The notes under the pieces were generated by a model. The model made no database searches. It was not told where the DNA came from and saw only the letters and a list, made by a program, of their open reading frames with translations. Source: a virus (lineage: Duplodnaviria > Heunggongvirae > Uroviricota > Caudoviricetes). From it: a DNA stretch of 37,333 nucleotides. Positions 250 to 6,709 of this stretch are shown piece after piece. How positions within the stretch are numbered: position 1 is the stretch's first letter; each line of letters starts with the position of its first letter. The position numbers and the translations under genes were made by a program. Location: the IMG/VR virus record IMGVR_UViG_2563366859_000002; one strand, given 5' to 3'.

Positions 250-3195
250 TTAGTGCTTCCCTTCTATTAAGTCTAACCTAGCTTTTATTCTTTCTATTTC
301 TCTGCGCTGCCATGCCGCCTCGATATAGAATAAGAGATCAGGTCTGACCCCCCATCTAGATCCTGCTGGCGTTATTTCAACGCGCTCAATGATGTCTTCC
401 ATTACCATCACTGGATTATCATCCTCATCAACAATGATGCTCCCGTCATTATCAGTCAGCGGCATTTCCCTTTGGCCAGTAATGACGTCATCATATACTG
501 CGGGATAATCGTCATAGCAAAGAAAGGCATAGCGGCATGTTGTGCTTTCTTCTTCCATGAGTCCGTGAGAAATAAGAACATCACGAAGTTGCTGCGCGAT
601 TACACCATGATGTATCCTCGCCCCTTCTTCCCCCTTTATAGCGACAGCGTTCAGCCATTTATAAGCGATATACCTGACGTCACCCCAGGCATCCAGCAAT
701 TCTTCGTCAGGAGAGACCGGCTCTGTCTTTAATGTTCCGTCACTGGTAACCACAGGATTGGAGCCAAGATAAACTGTCGAGAACCTGTTTCCCGGACCAC
801 CAAGAGCATTTACATTATCAAGATAAGGTTTAACATCTCCGTTCTCAAAAAGATGTTCGAGTGCGTTATATACCGCGCGACGTGGAGTACTGCTTCCGGA
901 ACCATGCAACGTTATCATTGCACCATCTGCTGAAGACGTTGTTTCACCGCCGCTAACGATTAATCTCTGAGCGGTAACATCATCAGACGGTACTTTCTTC
1001 GCAATAATGGCGTAATTACCCTCAAGTTTGACTTCCGCGCGAACTTGTCCTGATGTACCTGCATGGACAGTCAGTGACTGGACGGCAACATCATCTGTGA
1101 AATCAACGGGTACAGGAACCGTCCTCACGCCTGACGTCGACATAAAAGTAGGAAGCGTTCTGTTAGGAGTGGCTCCGTAGACAAAATCCCTTGAAACAAA
1201 TTCTTCCTGTTTAATTTTCACCCTGAAACAATACAAATCAGCCGGGTGACCATCGTGAACATAAGGATATTTTCTGTTGTTATCCCCTATGCTCCATGGG
1301 TTTAGAAAGTCTTCCCCACCGAAAATGTAGTACAGCCAGTTGTCTTTGATACAAACTGAACCAACACCAACCGCAGAGTTAACTATTCCGCCCTGATAAA
1401 TCTGATCAGTAACATTAACCCACTCTACATTATCCAGACTCCACTCATTGACGTTAACTCTGGTCATAAATGTTCTTGGATAATTTCCTGCATAACGGTT
1501 ATCAGGTTCTCCTCCTTCCCACTCACCAAATGCGCGCTCACTGCCAAAAATAATCAGCTCATCGCCAACTTTGGCAAAAGGAAGGTTTGAGTGATGAACA
1601 TTATTTGGGAAGCGAAGAGAATTCCATGATGTACCTAAATCAGAGCTTCTGTGCAATGAACTACCGGGTTGAGTACTTAATGTCCCCCTGGTCGTCAGAT
1701 ACAGAATGCCATCATAATATTTTACACATGGCTCAGATGCATTCGCCTCATATTCTGCAGGTATGCGTCTGCGAACAAAGCTACCAGGAGAACCGAAAGC
1801 ATCAGAGAAATAGAGTATCCCAAGCTCGCGTGGGCCAATATCACCATTATGGTAGCCAACAGCAAAACTGTTATCGCTAATCGTCGCAAAACTGTGAATC
1901 TCAGTAACAGGAGTGCTTCCGTCAACAAAAGAAGGAATAGTTCCAAGACTGGTTTTTCTCCATGGTGACGAGTGAAATGATGTACCAAAACTCCAGTATC
2001 TACCCTCGTTATTCTGATCCACATCCTGGGTATTTTGCGTCGTAACTGTAAAAGTATTTTTATCAATAACAGTAGTCACCGTCATATTCCCGGTAACACC
2101 TGTAACACCAGAGTTTGAGAAGTTGACAAAATCACCAGCAAATAATCCGTGATCAGTAATGCGAATATAAGCGACTTGCTGATTTGCTGCTTTCGTTATA
2201 CCACCATAAACGCGAAGGCTGCGACTCATTGGGCGATCCCACAACTCTGCAACCTGCAGTTTATTTCCGCTCACGGTCCGCGTCTCAATTACAGCAAAAA
2301 GGCGATTTCTGACAACCCCCATACTCATGCAGTGATAGTTAACTGTGGGATAGTTTTCATGTAAATCTGTAAGCCATTCCGGCGTTGTCCAGGTCTTCCC
2401 GTCATCTCCTGAGCGAACCCATGCAACATGGAGGTTATTTACACCATGGCGGTCTCCAGCCATAAAAGGCGCATAGATGACATTGTCATATACAAACGTT
2501 TTATCCTGCGTCCAGGCGTTGTACCACGGTGTATCTGTAATTTTAAATAACTCTCCCTGGATAAAATCTTCAGAAGCATAAAAAAGAGGCTGACCCGGTA
2601 TTCTCTCAAATAAAAAACGAGCATTTTTAAATCGACTGACATCTGGAAGAGTTGATACTTTAAAAGTAAGCCCTCGCCCATCTATCTTTTCACCACCTGT
2701 TGCAACAGAAAGTAATTCTGATAGAGCTGATGTATCATCATGAACACCATCACCAATAGCCCCCCAACCTCTTACATCATAACTGTCTCTCCATCTTGCT
2801 ATCTGAAGTTTTGGGTATTTATTCGCTCCATCTGGGTCTTCTAATTGCTGCCGTAACTGATCAGGATCATACTTCAGCACATTCGGAAAATAGAACTGCT
2901 GTGTACCATACGCATCATAAACAGCCATAGAATGGCCTTGCACGGTTACGAACTTGGCAATCTGTCCGTTATATACCGGATATCCAGCGGCGTTAATGAT
3001 GATTGGTTGCGAAACAGGAACGTGAGAACCATCTTCGTTCTCAACATAGACCTGAATCTGGTTTTCAGGATTTACCGGGTCAGTGTCAATTTTACCGATA
3101 TAAATTTTGCCATTAGCTACGGCTTTAAAAGAACGCGCCATAGTGAAGAGTTGCGAAGGCATACTCACTACAACATTGGCTGTAATGTCTGTCAT
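250..3195 (-). CDS. Tailspike, 981 aa: P22 gp9-like head-binding N-domain, sialidase-like domain with two Asp-boxes (endosialidase-like), C-terminal chaperone-like domain
   Basis: N-terminus [11 protein letters not shown]...KYDPDQ matches P22 gp9; Asp-boxes SGDDGKTW (2389-2412) and SSDLGTSW (1624-1647); S-D at aa 818-819 before a conserved C-terminal domain. Confidence 0.85.
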
Positions 3196-3254: not shown

Positions 3255-3267
3255 TACCGAAACGGTA
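3255..3267. promoter_or_regulatory. Palindrome TACCGAAACGGTA between divergent tailspike and mnt-like genes; candidate operator
   Basis: Perfect 5-bp arms around AAA in the 132-bp divergent intergenic region. Confidence 0.3.
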
Positions 3268-3327
3268 CGATTGTTGATTTGTACAGTAGGTTTTACGATG
3301 CCATTCCACCCATTTGGTGAGGCATTG

Positions 3328-3585
3328 ATGATGTACAGCAAATACGATGAGGCGCAGTTCCACTTGAGGCTTACACACGAGTTGCACGCTAAGATTAAGC
3401 AGCGTGCAAAAATGAATAACAGGTCTATCAATTCCGAAATTGTGGCTACGATGGAAGAATCACTCTCCAAACCATCACCTGTAAGCGGGTATCGTGATGA
3501 AGAAGAGAGGCTGGCCTCATTAATCTCGGAACGAGTAAAAGAAGTTGCGGCTGAAATTCTAAGGAAAGAAAAAACCCGCGATTAA
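3328..3585 (+). CDS. mnt: Mnt-like ribbon-helix-helix repressor, 85 aa
   Basis: RHH motif ...NNRSINSEIV... and C-terminus SKPSPVSGYRDEEERLA resemble P22 Mnt; SD GGTGAGG before ATGATG. Confidence 0.7.
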   Translation: MMYSKYDEAQFHLRLTHELHAKIKQRAKMNNRSINSEIVATMEESLSKPSPVSGYRDEEERLASLISERVKEVAAEILRKEKTRD

Positions 3586-4428: not shown

Positions 4429-5055
4429 TCAATGAATCCATTCCTCGCCGCGCAGTTTTGCCAGCATTGGCTGAGCGTTCTTTACGACAAAATTGTTGGT
4501 ATCAAGATTCTTCATTTCACGAAGAAGTGATTTCTTGGTTTCTTCTGACATATAGCGAGTCTCATATGCGATATCGTAAATCCTTCCTGAAAGCTCAGAA
4601 CAAATTTGCTTCATTCCTGGGTAGATGTGTTTGCACATTTGTTGACTCTTCTCCATCCACAATTGTAAGTAGCAGAGATTAACCAGTTCTTCGTCAGTAA
4701 ACTGTTTTGCAATCGGTGAGCATTCTGCCTGCCGATCCAAAATATCCAGCACCCAGCGGCGGAACTCTTTGGCTACCGGAGTGCGAGCAAACATCGCGAT
4801 TAGGTGGGCACCGCGTAGTGAGAAAACTCGCACTTTTTTGCGATAATTTCCTGAGGTACTCACTTCGAGTACCTGAGTCATTCCGGCGCTAAACTCATCG
4901 CTATACTTGTTATAAATCATTGTTACTGCACGACTATTTGCGTATTTAAGTGCAGATGCAATATTAGATGATGTAAACCAAACACCATGCATATCACGGG
5001 TGGGCACCAACTCAACTCCGTGGAAGTTGTAATCTGATTTTGCTACAATATTCAT
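4429..5055 (-). CDS. Bro-N-like domain protein, about 208 aa, possible second antirepressor
   Basis: Internal start MNIVAKSDYNFHGVELV with SD AAGGAA; N-terminal region resembles Bro-N/Ant N-domains (GxWF...A.AL.Y.N). Track ORF N-extension rejected. Confidence 0.5.
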   Translation of the reverse strand: MNIVAKSDYNFHGVELVPTRDMHGVWFTSSNIASALKYANSRAVTMIYNKYSDEFSAGMTQVLEVSTSGNYRKKVRVFSLRGAHLIAMFARTPVAKEFRRWVLDILDRQAECSPIAKQFTDEELVNLCYLQLWMEKSQQMCKHIYPGMKQICSELSGRIYDIAYETRYMSEETKKSLLREMKNLDTNNFVVKNAQPMLAKLRGEEWIH

Positions 5056-5128
5056 GTTAGTTTCCTTGCATACGGTTACTGACATAGAGGCCCGGTTTGT
5101 GTTCGCGCACTGCCGGGCTTCACTATTT

Positions 5129-5296
5129 TTATGTCCTAGCATTCTTCTCTCCAATCAGTCCGTACACTTTTCTCAATTGATAAATAAGTTCCGTGTTGAA
5201 CTGTCGACACTCTTTTTCTCCATTTCTTTCAATCGCCTTCCTTACATCCTCTGGGAAACGAACCTTGCGTTGATACATGTCTTTTGCTTTTTCCAT
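5129..5296 (-). CDS. arc: Arc-like ribbon-helix-helix repressor, 55 aa (absent from the ORF track because under 60 aa)
   Basis: MEKAKDMYQRKVRFPEDVRKAIERNGEKECRQFNTELIYQL...; SD AAGGAG 5 nt before ATG; position first in the ant operon as in P22. Confidence 0.6.
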   Translation of the reverse strand: MEKAKDMYQRKVRFPEDVRKAIERNGEKECRQFNTELIYQLRKVYGLIGEKNART

Positions 5297-5313
5297 CTCC
5301 ACTCCTTAAATAG

Positions 5314-5376
5314 CCCCACTGTGGGGCAATTGAAATTGTCACACCGTGCGTCATTGAAGTCAACCCCACCGTGGGG
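5314..5376. promoter_or_regulatory. Two 13-bp palindromic operators (CCCCACTGTGGGG at 5314-5326; CCCCACCGTGGGG at 5364-5376) in back-to-back divergent promoters
   Basis: Plus promoter TTGAAG(5354-5359)-17bp-CATAAT(5377-5382) has an operator in the spacer; minus promoter TTGACT-17bp-GACAAT has an operator just after +1. Confidence 0.55.
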
Positions 5377-5419
5377 CATAATTTACTTATTGTGAATTTT
5401 TCCTGTTTGGACTAATGGT

Positions 5420-5794
5420 ATGAGTAGAGAAGACCCTCAACTTCGGATTAGGCTTCCTGTTGAATTAAAAAAAATAATTGAAGCGTCATCAAAACAAAAT
5501 AATCGTTCTATGAATGCTGAGATTGTCACTCTGCTTGAGTTGGCGATTCGTGTTTGTCGTGATTTTGGGCCGGAGGATGGTCCTATCGTTCAGCAGTTTA
5601 AAGAACAACTAGATGCGATAAACAGAAAATATGATAAAATCGAGCATGAAAAACTTATACCTCAACTTTTAGAAATCATAGAAAAACAGAAAAAACAAGT
5701 AGATAAACTTATTAGCATGGTTGAAAGATCAATTCCTCTTTCAGAGGAATATAAGCAGAAATATCTTGGTGATGACAACAAAAAACCCACCTGA
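5420..5794 (+). CDS. Mnt/Arc-family RHH repressor with extended coiled-coil C-terminus, 124 aa
   Basis: N-terminus MSREDPQLRIRLPVELKK...NNRSMNAEIV parallels P22 Mnt; divergent from arc, as mnt is in P22. Confidence 0.65.
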   Translation: MSREDPQLRIRLPVELKKIIEASSKQNNRSMNAEIVTLLELAIRVCRDFGPEDGPIVQQFKEQLDAINRKYDKIEHEKLIPQLLEIIEKQKKQVDKLISMVERSIPLSEEYKQKYLGDDNKKPT

Positions 5795-5819
5795 CGGTGG
5801 GTTAATTTTTGCCTTTTTT
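5784..5819 (+). terminator. Rho-independent terminator after the 124-aa RHH gene
   Basis: Stem ACCCACC/GGTGGGT followed by a T-rich tract. Confidence 0.6.
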
Positions 5820-5892
5820 GGACCATATTGACTACTCATAAAATGAGATCAATATTTAATCGCCCAATAACGGGTGTATGTTGAGGTATATC

Positions 5893-6072
5893 ATGGCGAA
5901 AAAACCAGGTGAAAACACAGGAAAAAACGGCGGAATATACCAAGAAGTTGGCCCACGCGGCGGTAAGAAAGACAATTTTGCCACCGTCAAGGACAACGAA
6001 AGGCTTCCGCCAACAACAAAGCCAGGTCATGGCTGGGTATTGGATAAGCGAACTCCAGACAGCAAAAAGTAA
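5893..6072 (+). CDS. Small YjzC-like protein, 59 aa
   Basis: MAKKPGENTGKNGGIYQEVGPRGG...; SD GAGGT; own promoter-like TTGACT-17bp-AATATT (5828-5856) with CTCAT/ATGAG inverted repeat in the spacer. Confidence 0.55.
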   Translation: MAKKPGENTGKNGGIYQEVGPRGGKKDNFATVKDNERLPPTTKPGHGWVLDKRTPDSKK

Positions 6073-6085
6073 TAATCAAGCCGGG

Positions 6086-6451
6086 TCACTCCGGCTTTTT
6101 GATATGTCGCTCGCAGAACTCAACAAGCCTGCTCATTAAGTAGCAGTAAGTCTCATTGGCTCTTCCTGGTTCAACATCAACACCGACCCTTGAGCAGATA
6201 TCGAATGCCATGTGAGCGCACTCATGGGCAATAGTAGATAGTTTGCCATTGAACACGCCTATCACATGCAAAACACCATTCTCGCTGCTCATTGTATGAG
6301 ACGCTCCGTTGGCATCCGAGTCCTGCACGTCCACACCAAGTTTTTGATGCAGGCGTTGCCATTCTGGAAAGTCTCTACAAAACACAATTGTACCGCTCTC
6401 AAAGAGCGGAACGAGCATCTTTGGTACGTTTCCAATGTTAACTTTTTTCAT
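6086..6451 (-). CDS. Hypothetical 121-aa protein with HExxH...E motif (possible small zinc metallopeptidase)
   Basis: Motif IAHECAHMAFD with Glu residues 14-20 aa downstream; the antisense plus-strand reading looks non-proteinaceous. Confidence 0.5.
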   Translation of the reverse strand: MKKVNIGNVPKMLVPLFESGTIVFCRDFPEWQRLHQKLGVDVQDSDANGASHTMSSENGVLHVIGVFNGKLSTIAHECAHMAFDICSRVGVDVEPGRANETYCYLMSRLVEFCERHIKKPE

Positions 6452-6481
6452 GGTATCCTGCTCAAAACTAAGGAGGTTGGT

Positions 6482-6709
6482 GTGAAGCGATGGTTCCTCA
6501 TAATTACTGTTTTCGCGATCATTTACGCTATTTTCCCTGCATTAAAAGCACCAATGCAAATAATTTCACTAGCAATAATTGCAATTGGTGCTTTCATTAC
6601 AGTATCCGTACTTGTGTTTAAGGTTTTAAAGTTTTTAGTTTGGCTATCAAAAGATGATGGATGCAAAGTTCATCAAGAAAAAGAAGGCAAAATAACCAAA
6701 GTTGACTAA
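6482..6709 (+). CDS. Small two-helix membrane protein, about 75 aa, GTG start
   Basis: Strong SD AAGGAGG 5 nt before GTG; two hydrophobic segments (FLIITVFAIIYAIF and IISLAIIAIGAFITVSVLVF). Start uncertain. Confidence 0.45.
   Translation: MKRWFLIITVFAIIYAIFPALKAPMQIISLAIIAIGAFITVSVLVFKVLKFLVWLSKDDGCKVHQEKEGKITKVD

Follow-up and report, generated by a model that had tools for sequence, protein, structure and literature searches.

A candidate immI-type antirepressor control region with three operator-like dyads and back-to-back promoters in prophages of Enterobacterales

For P22-like phages, Villafane et al. 2008 (PMC2629481) describe an "ant moron" region, an insert of the late operon that is highly variable and expressed independently, often with mnt, arc and ant homologues and with ten types in sixteen genomes. 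According to that paper, the P22 version was the only one studied functionally; its passages on the region mention neither the present allele nor its operator layout. An antirepressor acts by inactivating the main repressor of the prophage; it can also induce co-resident prophages or cross-activate them, as established for P22 Ant and summarised in an iScience paper of 2024 (PMC11016777). In P22, the immI region lies between the gene 16/sieA side and the tailspike gene, and contains a Mnt-type repressor gene divergent from a small Arc-type gene and an antirepressor gene. The genomic position recurs in the phage DNA analysed here, a stretch of 37,333 nucleotides that we call the window, and so does this arrangement, with a putative Arc-type gene (Table 1).

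In the window, the divergent Mnt-like and arc-like genes are separated by a gap of 123 bp. We consider it fairly probable, from sequence comparisons, that this gap is an immI-type antirepressor control region and that the Mnt-like protein is the main reader of three RHH operators within it. Near-identical DNA in deposited phages was found for the flanks only, the central part having no match, and our literature search found no functional study of the present allele.

Table 1. Features of the module and its surroundings, in coordinates of the window
Feature	Position	Strand	Details
Tailspike gene	250-3195		
Second Mnt homologue of the window	3328-3585		
Second antirepressor-family gene, 242 aa	3612-4340	-	ATG 4340, same operon; PHROG 1726 anti-repressor, E 7e-101, full length
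Antirepressor gene, 208 aa	4429-5055	-	Bro-N + P22AR_C; Pfam P22AR_C E 5.4e-13, Bro-N E 1.9e-10
Candidate sar-like antisense RNA	5041-5133	+	Extended -10 TGcTACAAT 5041-5049; start ~5055, opposite ant start codon
Arc-like gene, 55 aa	5129-5296	-	First gene of minus-strand operon, ATG 5296
Gap between the divergent genes	5297-5419		
O1	5313-5327		GCCCCACTGTGGGGC = GCCCCAC-T-GTGGGGC; perfect 15-bp dyad, centre 5320
Arc-like/antirepressor operon promoter (predicted)	5335-5363	-	-35 TTGACT 5363-5358, 17-bp spacer, TG-extended -10 GACAAT 5340-5335; start near 5328
Middle site	5338-5352		GtCaCACCGTGcGtC = GTCACAC-C-GTGCGTC; degenerate dyad (sequence reading and repeat-family listing)
Mnt-like gene promoter (predicted)	5354-5382	+	-35 TTGAAG 5354-5359, 17-bp spacer, -10 CATAAT 5377-5382; start near 5389
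O2	5363-5377		aCCCCACCGTGGGGC = aCCCCAC-C-GTGGGGC; perfect 13-bp dyad at 5364-5376, centre 5370
Mnt-like RHH repressor gene, 124 aa	5420-5794	+	N-terminal RHH domain, then predicted 50-residue helix
Bidirectional terminator-like hairpin	5784-5803		End of Mnt-like gene; homology to P22 mnt 3' end starts here
Injection-protein-like gene	6706-8829		

Genes of the module and a candidate antisense RNA

The 124-aa protein scored 30.6 bits against the Pfam Arc family, above the cut-off, and its top match in the PDB was 1mnt (E 0.0016). Its N-domain aligned with Mnt in register from residue 1 (hhalign, 96%), retained both arginines at Mnt positions 2 and 10, and was ~49% identical to P22-group Mnt proteins over 39-43 aa. 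The AlphaFold model, of moderate confidence (pLDDT 69), contained helices at residues 14-26, 31-48 and 55-104. The C-domain showed no sequence similarity to that of P22 Mnt, the two domains being unrelated in sequence. We call the protein Mnt-like, as by sequence it is a Mnt homologue in register and occupies the genomic slot of mnt.

The 55-aa product of the arc-like gene scored slightly under the cut-off of the Pfam Arc family (19.1 versus 20.4 bits) and matched the Arc-like repressors of PHROG 228 (E 1.3e-5). BLASTP aligned it in register with P22 Arc at 33% identity (E 2e-5), with Q9, R13 and P15 conserved, and hhalign gave 55% against Arc. Comparison of its profile with PDB sequences gave designed proteins and a primase as top matches, which were judged spurious, and Arc itself appeared at E 0.2-0.5. 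The AlphaFold model (pLDDT 66) had the strand region built as helix and, as a monomer model of an obligate dimer, was uninformative; Foldseek found no match to it in the PDB. Taken together, these comparisons weakly suggest an RHH fold for the Arc-like protein. GTG 5302 was also considered as the start of this gene and rejected, since homologues and the RefSeq annotation support the ATG in Table 1.

The 208-aa antirepressor matched PHROG 245 (anti-repressor Ant, E 8.6e-53). Unlike P22 Ant, it has a Bro-N N-domain, and it is followed by a second antirepressor-family gene, which is also unlike P22. No Pfam match was found for the 242-aa product of this second gene. In other loci, the genes downstream of the arc-like gene encode antirepressors of several families, differing by locus. 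At the other end of the module, positions 5779-6485 (the 3' flank) match the P22 mnt 3' end, terminator and orf59a at 98% identity.

A sar-like antisense RNA is likely encoded opposite the antirepressor start; the layout of the candidate matches that of the annotated sar and Psar of P22. It would fold into two hairpins (dG of -35 kcal/mol, z of -5.8), and a U run follows the second, a terminator stem at 5087-5121. Diverse cassettes retain both the -10 box and this terminator hairpin, with compensatory changes. An Rfam search at a permissive threshold gave nothing credible and no match to the sar family.

Operator-like dyads, predicted divergent promoters and their conservation

The initial annotation had reported two near-identical palindromes, and both CCCCACTGTGGGG (5314-5326) and CCCCACCGTGGGG (5364-5376) were indeed recovered as the dyads O1 and O2, with centres 50 bp apart. 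The exact pattern CCCCACNGTGGGG matched these two sites only in the 37-kb window and matched nothing in any of 100 dinucleotide shuffles, which excludes a chance origin of the two exact dyads. The core CCACNGTGG was likewise confined to O1 and O2 within the window, with 0.31 matches expected by chance. However, the proposed pair of twin operators was incomplete. The conserved sites are three, and the middle site, which had been overlooked, agrees with the O1/O2 dyad at 11 of 15 positions. All three sites belong to a single sequence class with the consensus (G/A)CCCCAC-N-GTGGGGC.

The predicted promoters and the three sites are tightly interleaved. The annotation had placed one palindrome in the spacer of a plus-strand promoter for the 124-aa RHH gene and the other at +1 of a minus-strand promoter for the arc-ant operon, with the two -35 hexamers overlapping back to back. 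This geometry held: the promoter scan located O2 in the spacer between TTGAAG and CATAAT, the predicted leftward start coincided with the edge of O1, and the two hexamers had 2 bp in common (5358-5359). O1 occupies ~+1 to +15 of the minus-strand promoter, its centre lying 15 bp past the -10. The middle site covers the spacer and extended -10 of the same promoter and ends 1 bp short of the plus-strand -35, and O2, which fills the plus-strand spacer, abuts the minus-strand -35.

Promoter-like matches were not enriched overall in the region (6 found versus 5.3 expected), and the promoter calls therefore stand on conservation in relatives, not on the scan. CATAAT and the TTG of the -35 were kept in the plus-strand promoter across cassettes. 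In the minus-strand promoter, TTGAC was invariant, with TTGACA as the -35 in most relatives, and GACA[A/C]T retained A2 and T6. By inspection of the sequence, the gap contains no acceptable pair of fully overlapping promoters in the style of P22.

Conservation was calculated as mean pairwise identity over 53 distinct homologous cassettes from many Enterobacterales prophages. The identity was 0.53 to 0.55 at codon third positions (the neutral level) and 0.49 to 0.53 at the remaining intergenic bases, compared with 0.974 for O2, 0.983 for the middle site and 0.856 for O1. With palindromes and promoter hexamers far above neutral conservation, the alignments indicate that the control region is under strong selection. 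In O2, the centre base alone varied, as expected of a dyad operator with an uncontacted centre. O1 was mostly imperfect in relatives, with 12-13 of 14 positions matching. Among further loci, O2 read ACCCCAC[C/G]GTGGGGC in 75 of the 76 from which the site was extracted, and the middle site read GTCACACCGTGCGTC in 72 of 77. The centre base of the middle site varies in locus L087.

The distance from the middle site to O2 was identical in 46 of 47 cassettes (25 bp from dyad centre to dyad centre). Across cassettes, neighbouring sites were spaced by 25 bp and O1 and O2 by 49-52 bp, without helical phasing, which counts against the reading proposed below. Of the 88 loci retrieved with the Arc-like protein, 86 have the arc-like gene paired with its Mnt-like (MSREDPQ) partner; in the other two, the script did not locate the arc-like start. 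No natural separation of the two RHH genes was found among these 88 loci. The two proteins being inherited together, their pairing is equally compatible with either of them reading the sites. One locus (L077), the sole one without an arc-like gene, has lost O1, arc-like and ant and retains the Mnt-like gene, O2 and the middle site; it is a deletion remnant.

Assignment of the sites to a regulator

By their sequences, O1 and O2 are dyads of the Mnt-operator class. They have the core CCAC-N-GTGG in common with the annotated mnt operator of P22 (GGTCCAC-G-GTGGACC), with the sites directly upstream of mnt in ST160 (AGACCAC-G-GTGGTCT) and Gally (AGACCAC-T-GTGGTCT), and with a site in the Salmonella cassette L094 (GCACCAC-T-GTGAGCC). 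The earlier statement that the operators differ from those of P22 is thus correct for the full sequences but not for this core. The size of 15-17 bp, the core, the free centre base and a position adjoining or within a promoter are all features of a Mnt-class operator dyad that are present here.

We take the DNA contact residues of Mnt to be 2, 6, 8 and 10. As a general rule for RHH proteins, strand positions 2, 4 and 6 contact bases (PMC3413123). In the four cassette types from which the correspondence was drawn, the outer half-site bases covaried with strand residues 6 and 8, the combinations being His,Asn; Gln,Asn; Gln,Lys; and Gln,Arg, the last in the present cassette. This correspondence serves as support only, as it failed as a predictive rule on phage Kapi1, whose short intergenic region contained no CCAC-N-GTGG dyad beside a Gln,Asn,Arg protein. 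The same design was also found with other specificities, namely AAGTCAA-A-TTGACTT in locus L093 and ACCAA-C-TTGGT in locus L002. Each of these loci has sites of a single class, one close to the arc-like start and the other within the repressor promoter spacer.

It is possible, if rather doubtful, that both RHH proteins read one operator code and that the switch is set by oligomerisation and stability, not by separate operators. The three-site array would then be shared, competitively or cooperatively, by the Arc-like dimer and the Mnt-like oligomer. The Mnt-like repressors carry at least five unrelated types of C-terminal domain on an identical DNA-binding domain, and these interchangeable domains could act as sensor or partner-binding modules, providing prophage-specific triggers of antirepressor release. 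All carriers, podovirus-like and siphovirus-like and in many genera, would be mutually immune at the antirepressor level through the shared operator.

That the dyads are operators of the 55-aa Arc-like protein alone, with the Mnt-like protein acting elsewhere or at the middle site only, appears unlikely. Such an arrangement would imply autoregulation of the arc-like/antirepressor operon together with repression of the divergent gene. Gln9, Lys11 and Arg13, the strand residues of the Arc-like protein, would indeed match a G-rich half-site, and the Mnt-like protein has nearly identical ones; the promoter-spacer operator of P22, to which O2 and the middle site correspond as spacer sites, belongs to Arc. 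In addition, the TL-2011b lineage, the only one in which O2 has become degenerate, has perfect copies of O1 and the middle site next to an intact arc-like gene. However, the CCAC-N-GTGG class is found upstream of mnt in ST160 and Gally, in which mnt adjoins the tailspike gene with no arc or ant in between. The core is that of the annotated P22 Mnt operator, whereas the Arc operator annotated in P22 has an unrelated sequence. Cassette L094 and the present cassette agree in their Arc-like contact residues and differ in their outer operator bases; the Mnt-like residue, in contrast, differs between them (Lys versus Arg). Furthermore, the deletion remnant retains O2 without any arc-like gene.

We judge it very improbable that the palindromes act mainly as nucleic-acid hairpins, with O1 as an mRNA-stabilising 5' stem-loop of the arc-like/antirepressor transcript or the pair as terminators. 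O1 does lie at the predicted leftward 5' end, where it could form a 6-bp G+C-rich hairpin (-10.7 kcal/mol), and 36 of 48 distinct cassettes retained its six pairs in full on the transcribed strand, partly by G-U pairing. However, this hairpin was no stabler than shuffled sequences (z of -0.92), and the O1 variants reflect few mutational events, both pair-keeping and pair-breaking on the transcribed strand. Neither dyad is followed by a T run. O2, which lies in a promoter spacer upstream of both predicted starts and would be untranscribed, is nevertheless better conserved than O1.

A hairpin role of O1 could coexist with operator function, and the same applies to the P22 Mnt operator.

It is hardly credible that the sites are bound by a host factor or by some other phage protein, for instance the main repressor of the prophage, because they are strictly co-inherited with the two RHH genes in podovirus-like and siphovirus-like prophages of many genera and change when the RHH N-domain is swapped and the C-domain retained (P0018 in L093). 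A LexA box was rejected by inspection, the sequence being unlike CTGT-N8-ACAG.

Proposed regulation and comparison with P22 and related modules

With the Mnt-like protein as the main reader, the anatomy, homology and selection described above lead us to infer the following binding, start sites and regulatory logic. Two sigma-70 promoters would fire in opposite directions from the overlapping -35 hexamers, the leftward one into the arc-like gene, the antirepressor gene and the second antirepressor gene, and the rightward one into the Mnt-like repressor gene. O1, the middle site and O2 would be RHH operators, each sized for one tetramer (dimer of dimers), and the Mnt-like protein, forming an oligomer via its long C-terminal helix, would most likely be their main reader. 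In a lysogen, it would occupy all three sites. Occupancy of O1 would block the leftward promoter at its start point. Protein at the middle site would lie in the spacer of that promoter, and protein at O2 would abut the leftward -35 and sit within the spacer of the promoter that drives the repressor gene. This would keep the antirepressor off, and the repressor would limit its own synthesis. The DNA-facing strand residues of the Arc-like protein (Gln, Lys, Arg) are nearly equal to those of the Mnt-like protein (Gln, Arg, Arg). We give about an even chance to the Arc-like protein reading the same sites and shutting both promoters after an expression burst on infection, as P22 Arc does.

O2 is the best site and lies within the repressor's own promoter, so that in a simple model the repressor would shut itself off before the antirepressor promoter. 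Cooperativity or occlusion of the -35 must therefore be assumed.

Prophages of E. coli, Salmonella, Klebsiella, Enterobacter, Citrobacter, Yersinia (including Y. pestis), Proteus, Pantoea and others carry the cassette as one conserved unit. It is present in P22-like and lambda-like phages, also among lambda-like tail genes, and its DNA-binding domain and operators are nearly invariant. If the model is true, one repressor specificity would police the antirepressor genes of many unrelated phages, which would add a layer of shared immunity and cross-talk. The four operator variants with their four residue combinations would then be a natural series for the Mnt-type beta-strand recognition code, and the compact design with three operators and two promoters would be a useful synthetic-biology part.

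Several known modules resemble this one in part. The Mnt-only modules of the P22-like phages ST160/SE1 and Gally, with which the second Mnt homologue of the window is grouped, have a perfect dyad of the same class with a variable centre base as here. However, they contain a single operator just upstream of the mnt -35, as in P22, and have no arc or ant; their outer half-site bases are different, and their strand residues 6 and 8 are Gln and Asn. Escherichia phage TL-2011b (JQ011317) and lambda-like prophages such as that of E. coli CFSAN018748 have the same arc-like gene, three sites and the MSREDPQLRIRLP N-domain, and their genes are annotated as hypothetical or merely as Arc family. TL-2011b as deposited has a 1-nt insertion in the Mnt-like gene. 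In CFSAN018748, tail genes L and K flank the cassette, which has a different antirepressor there.

The likeness to Pant/Pmnt of P22 asserted in the initial annotation stands for the immI-type region itself, with its mnt slot and its Mnt-like, Arc-like and antirepressor genes, but not for the promoter geometry. The P22 promoters overlap fully, and the -10 of each covers the -35 of the other, whereas here the -35 hexamers alone overlap, and the promoter starts are ~61 bp apart compared to ~37 bp in P22. The centre of the P22 Mnt operator is 15 bp after the Pant -10, and O1 lies at an equal distance; another P22 operator occupies the antirepressor promoter spacer, a place taken here by the middle site. 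The single Arc operator of P22 (in the spacer) and its single Mnt operator (at the start site) have unrelated sequences, as opposed to three sites of one class here. A P22-like split, with one site for Mnt and one for Arc, thus does not follow. P22 Mnt activates Pmnt indirectly, whereas a site inside the repressor's own promoter suggests direct self-repression in the present module. The module would be a previously uncharacterised yet widespread variant of P22 immI, with back-to-back promoters, three same-class sites and, probably, self-repression by the Mnt-like protein as its three differences, and as such it extends the P22 paradigm while overturning no concept.

Organization of the arc-like/mnt-like control region

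Pfam assigns the 124-aa protein an RHH domain of the Arc type (30.6 bits), and among solved structures its best match is Mnt of P22 (1mnt, residues 3-43 on 2-42). A profile of its homologues matched Mnt with 96% probability, aligned from residue 1, and the AlphaFold model (moderate confidence) showed two RHH helices followed by a helix at 55-104. The 55-aa protein showed a weak but in-register likeness to P22 Arc (33% identity, with Gln9, Arg13 and Pro15 kept); it scored slightly under the Pfam Arc cut-off and matched the PHROG Arc-like repressor with an E of 1.3e-5. It is followed on the minus strand by an antirepressor gene (Bro-N + P22AR_C) and a second antirepressor-family gene. Since positions 5779-6485 of the window are 98% identical to the 3' end of P22 mnt, the terminator and orf59a, the 124-aa gene sits in the mnt slot of a P22-like genome. 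The tailspike of the window combines an N-terminal head-binding domain of the P22 type with a receptor-binding part that is long and different.

The initial annotation described an immI-like switch in which one of twin palindromes fills the spacer of the plus-strand promoter, the other lies at +1 of the minus-strand promoter, and the two -35 hexamers overlap back to back. The sequence bears this description out, and the reading as an immI-like control region is essentially right; the bistability also proposed there is conjectural. The pattern CCCCACNGTGGGG matched only at O1 and O2 in 37,333 bases (none in 100 dinucleotide shuffles), with 50 bp between the two centres. The predicted minus-strand start (~5328) borders O1, O2 lies between TTGAAG and CATAAT, and bases 5358-5359 belong to both -35 hexamers. 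The scan showed no excess of promoter-like matches over shuffles (6 against 5.3 expected), which leaves the promoter calls dependent on comparative support. The operators are not merely twin, however, because a third site had been overlooked. This middle site is at the exact midpoint between O1 and O2. It takes up both the spacer and the extended -10 in the minus-strand promoter and ends 1 bp short of the plus-strand -35. The layout has near two-fold symmetry about 5357-5358, with one spacer site in each promoter that also abuts the -35 of the opposite promoter. O1 is an additional block on the antirepressor side.

Features of the window, with mean pairwise identity among 53 distinct cassettes
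Feature	Coordinates	Strand	Sequence or detail	Identity
Tailspike gene	250-3195	-		
13-bp palindrome	3256-3268		TACCGAAACGGTA	
Second Mnt homologue	3328-3585	+	85 aa	
Candidate antisense RNA	5041-5133	+	extended -10 TGcTACAAT at 5041-5049; predicted start ~5055	
Intergenic gap	5297-5419		between ATG 5296 (55-aa gene, -) and ATG 5420 (124-aa gene, +)	
O1 dyad	5313-5327		GCCCCACTGTGGGGC, from sequence	0.856
Minus-strand promoter	5363-5335	-	TTGACT, 17 bp, GACAAT preceded by TG; consensus scan	
Middle site	5338-5352		GTCACAC-C-GTGCGTC; 11/15 positions match the dyad	0.983
Plus-strand promoter	5354-5382	+	TTGAAG, 17 bp, CATAAT; O2 inside spacer; consensus scan	
-10 of plus-strand promoter				0.98
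-35 pair				0.91
O2 dyad	5363-5377		aCCCCACCGTGGGGC, from sequence	0.974
Two leaders and O1-to-middle spacer				0.49-0.53

Conservation and spread of the cassette

Codon third positions of both flanking genes, used as the neutral yardstick, were 0.53-0.55 identical among the 53 cassettes. Measured against them, the control region is under purifying selection. Variation in O2 was confined to the centre base column, and the middle site was altered in one genome at its centre base, as the centre bases of O1 and O2 vary. The invariance of the middle site exceeds what promoter hexamers explain. The distance from the middle site to O2 was constant in 46 of 47 cassettes (25 bp between dyad centres), and that from O1 to O2 ranged from 49 to 52 bp. 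O1 was imperfect in most relatives (12-13/14 positions). The leftward -35, TTGACT in the window, is the consensus TTGACA in most relatives. The TL-2011b lineage reverses the strengths, with a perfect O1 and a degenerate O2. Phage TL-2011b itself (JQ011317 30035-31639) is a deposited phage with the cassette, and all its cassette genes are listed as hypothetical. A G run in its Mnt-like gene is one G too long, through either a frameshift or a sequencing error. A relative that is intact has a perfect O1, the degenerate O2 GCACACGGTGAGGC and a -10 of CATACT. A deletion derivative (L077, 2880-3460) retained the Mnt-like gene and O2 without O1, arc-like or ant, and the C-terminal remnant of a second antirepressor gene was fused beside its middle site. 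In this it resembles phages L and ST64T, which are mnt-only.

The cassette is common in prophages. The 124-aa protein retrieved 80 viral-contig loci and the 55-aa protein 80 further ones, and the cassette was found in 8 species genomes from Rouxiella to Yersinia pestis. Its hosts include P22-like prophages and a lambda-like prophage, where it lies between tail genes L and K. The matching protein clusters number in the hundreds, with annotation never beyond "Arc family". Among deposited phages, the central DNA of the cassette had no match and no Mnt-like N-domain exceeded 60% identity, the closest being those of Mnt from P22-like phages (~49% over 39-43 residues). The conserved unit comprises arc-like together with the intergenic region and some 40 codons at the 5' end of the Mnt-like gene (MSREDPQLRIRLP...). 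Past this unit, the C-terminal domains were of at least five unrelated types, none known in Pfam, giving proteins of 86 to 151 aa, and antirepressors of several different families follow arc-like in different loci. Recombination evidently takes place immediately after the RHH domain. The C-domains on an identical DNA-binding domain came from loci L012-L082 (proteins P0018-P0112); the commonest, in proteins of 143-151 aa, looks like a globular alpha/beta domain. Two proteins, P0018 and P0024, combine the C-domain of the 124-aa protein with another RHH domain, and the palindromes there differ too (AAGTCAAATTGACTT). According to Villafane et al. (PMC2629481), this region of P22-like genomes is a highly variable "ant moron", of which the P22 version alone is described as studied. 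Our literature searches turned up no functional study of the allele in the window. The very wide distribution and the domain-swapped repressors somewhat raise the otherwise moderate interest of the cassette.

Recognition of the dyads and proposed regulation

The P22 record places the mnt operator, GGTCCAC-G-GTGGACC, directly after the Pant -10. Its core, CCAC-N-GTGG, is shared with O1 and O2, and the suggestion that the operators differ from those of P22 gives way to a single Mnt-like operator class. The same dyad class is found directly upstream of mnt in ST160 (AGACCAC-G-GTGGTCT) and Gally (AGACCAC-T-GTGGTCT). In these phages mnt adjoins the tailspike gene with no arc/ant in between, and the dyad is most unlikely to serve an RHH protein besides Mnt. 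At the O2 position, the more distantly related cassette L094 from Salmonella reads GCACCAC-T-GTGAGCC. Across the four cassette types (P22, ST160/Gally, L094 and the window), the core is constant and the outer operator bases change. Mnt reportedly contacts DNA through residues 2, 6, 8 and 10, as described by Knight and Sauer. The arginines equivalent to residues 2 and 10 are constant across the four types, and residues 6 and 8 vary (His,Asn; Gln,Asn; Gln,Lys; and Gln,Arg in the window). RHH base contacts are made by hydrophilic residues at alternate strand positions (PMC3413123). This residue-to-base correspondence, in few cases, supports the Mnt-like protein as the operator reader; it did not predict the region of phage Kapi1.

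The DNA-facing residues of the two window proteins are nearly identical (Gln,Lys,Arg in Arc-like; Gln,Arg,Arg in Mnt-like), and in L093, a cassette of other specificity, they are identical (Lys,Thr,Arg). Given this near-identity and the single site class, shared recognition of the sites by the two proteins is put at roughly even odds; if true, this would set the cassette genuinely apart from P22. The Arc-like protein may possibly be the sole reader, but this agrees less closely with the Mnt-only phages and with L094. Binding by a host factor is unlikely, since the dyads are co-inherited strictly with the RHH genes and a swap of the RHH N-domain is accompanied by site replacement. A hairpin function cannot explain O2, the most conserved copy yet outside both predicted transcripts; O1 hairpin stability was no better than that of shuffled sequence, and its variants did not consistently keep pairing.

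Anatomy, homology and purifying selection are established by these data. With the Mnt-like protein as reader, we infer that in the lysogen its oligomer would occupy all three dyads. It would thereby close the arc-like/antirepressor promoter in three places and limit its own promoter via O2. RNA polymerases at the two promoters would compete because the -35 hexamers overlap. Upon infection, when repressor is absent, the leftward promoter would fire, and the Arc-like protein would then build up and close the region.

A third regulator is likely a putative sar-like antisense RNA. Its predicted start is opposite the antirepressor start codon (5055-5053), and the RNA is also opposite the ribosome-binding site. 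The predicted fold has two hairpins (dG -35 kcal/mol, z -5.8), the second of which (5087-5121) precedes a U run. The -10 box and terminator hairpin are kept in a variety of cassettes whose antirepressor genes differ, and the terminator stems differ in sequence with complementarity kept by compensatory changes. The layout resembles that annotated for sar RNA and Psar in P22; Rfam gave no match for the candidate.

Comparison with P22 and other control cassettes

The second Mnt homologue of the window adjoins the tailspike gene and has a P22 Mnt-like C-terminus. Its upstream palindrome precedes TTGTTG and TACGAT, which are separated by 17 bp, so the window has two immI-type repressors. This operator-then-promoter geometry is that of P22, ST160 and Gally, whereas the operator sequence is different. 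In an E. coli HS prophage (L104, NC_009800 324576-329658), the antirepressor 5' region is 100% identical over 83 bp but adjoins another control cassette, with a small RHH-like protein and a divergent 213-aa helix-turn-helix protein, LexA-like in appearance. An apparent absence of arc from this prophage was remarked on earlier by Villafane et al. 2008 (PMC2629481).

The same plan with other operator specificities was found in two further cassettes. In L093, a perfect dyad near arc-like is followed by a half-site and an imperfect dyad in the repressor promoter spacer, and the layout of L002 is similar.

The proposed analogy with P22 Pant/Pmnt stands as far as the region is immI-like, but the promoter geometry is unlike that of P22. 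The O1 centre lies 15 bp past the last base of the minus-strand -10, as far as the P22 mnt operator centre lies past the Pant -10. The middle site corresponds in the minus-strand promoter spacer to the P22 arc operator, annotated in the Pant spacer, and just upstream of the plus-strand -35 to the mnt operator relative to Pmnt. In P22, Pmnt and Pant overlap completely, whereas in the window the plus-strand promoter is displaced, its overlap is limited to the -35 hexamers, and it has a spacer operator of its own, O2. Unlike the separate Arc and Mnt operators of P22, O1, the middle site and O2 belong to one class.
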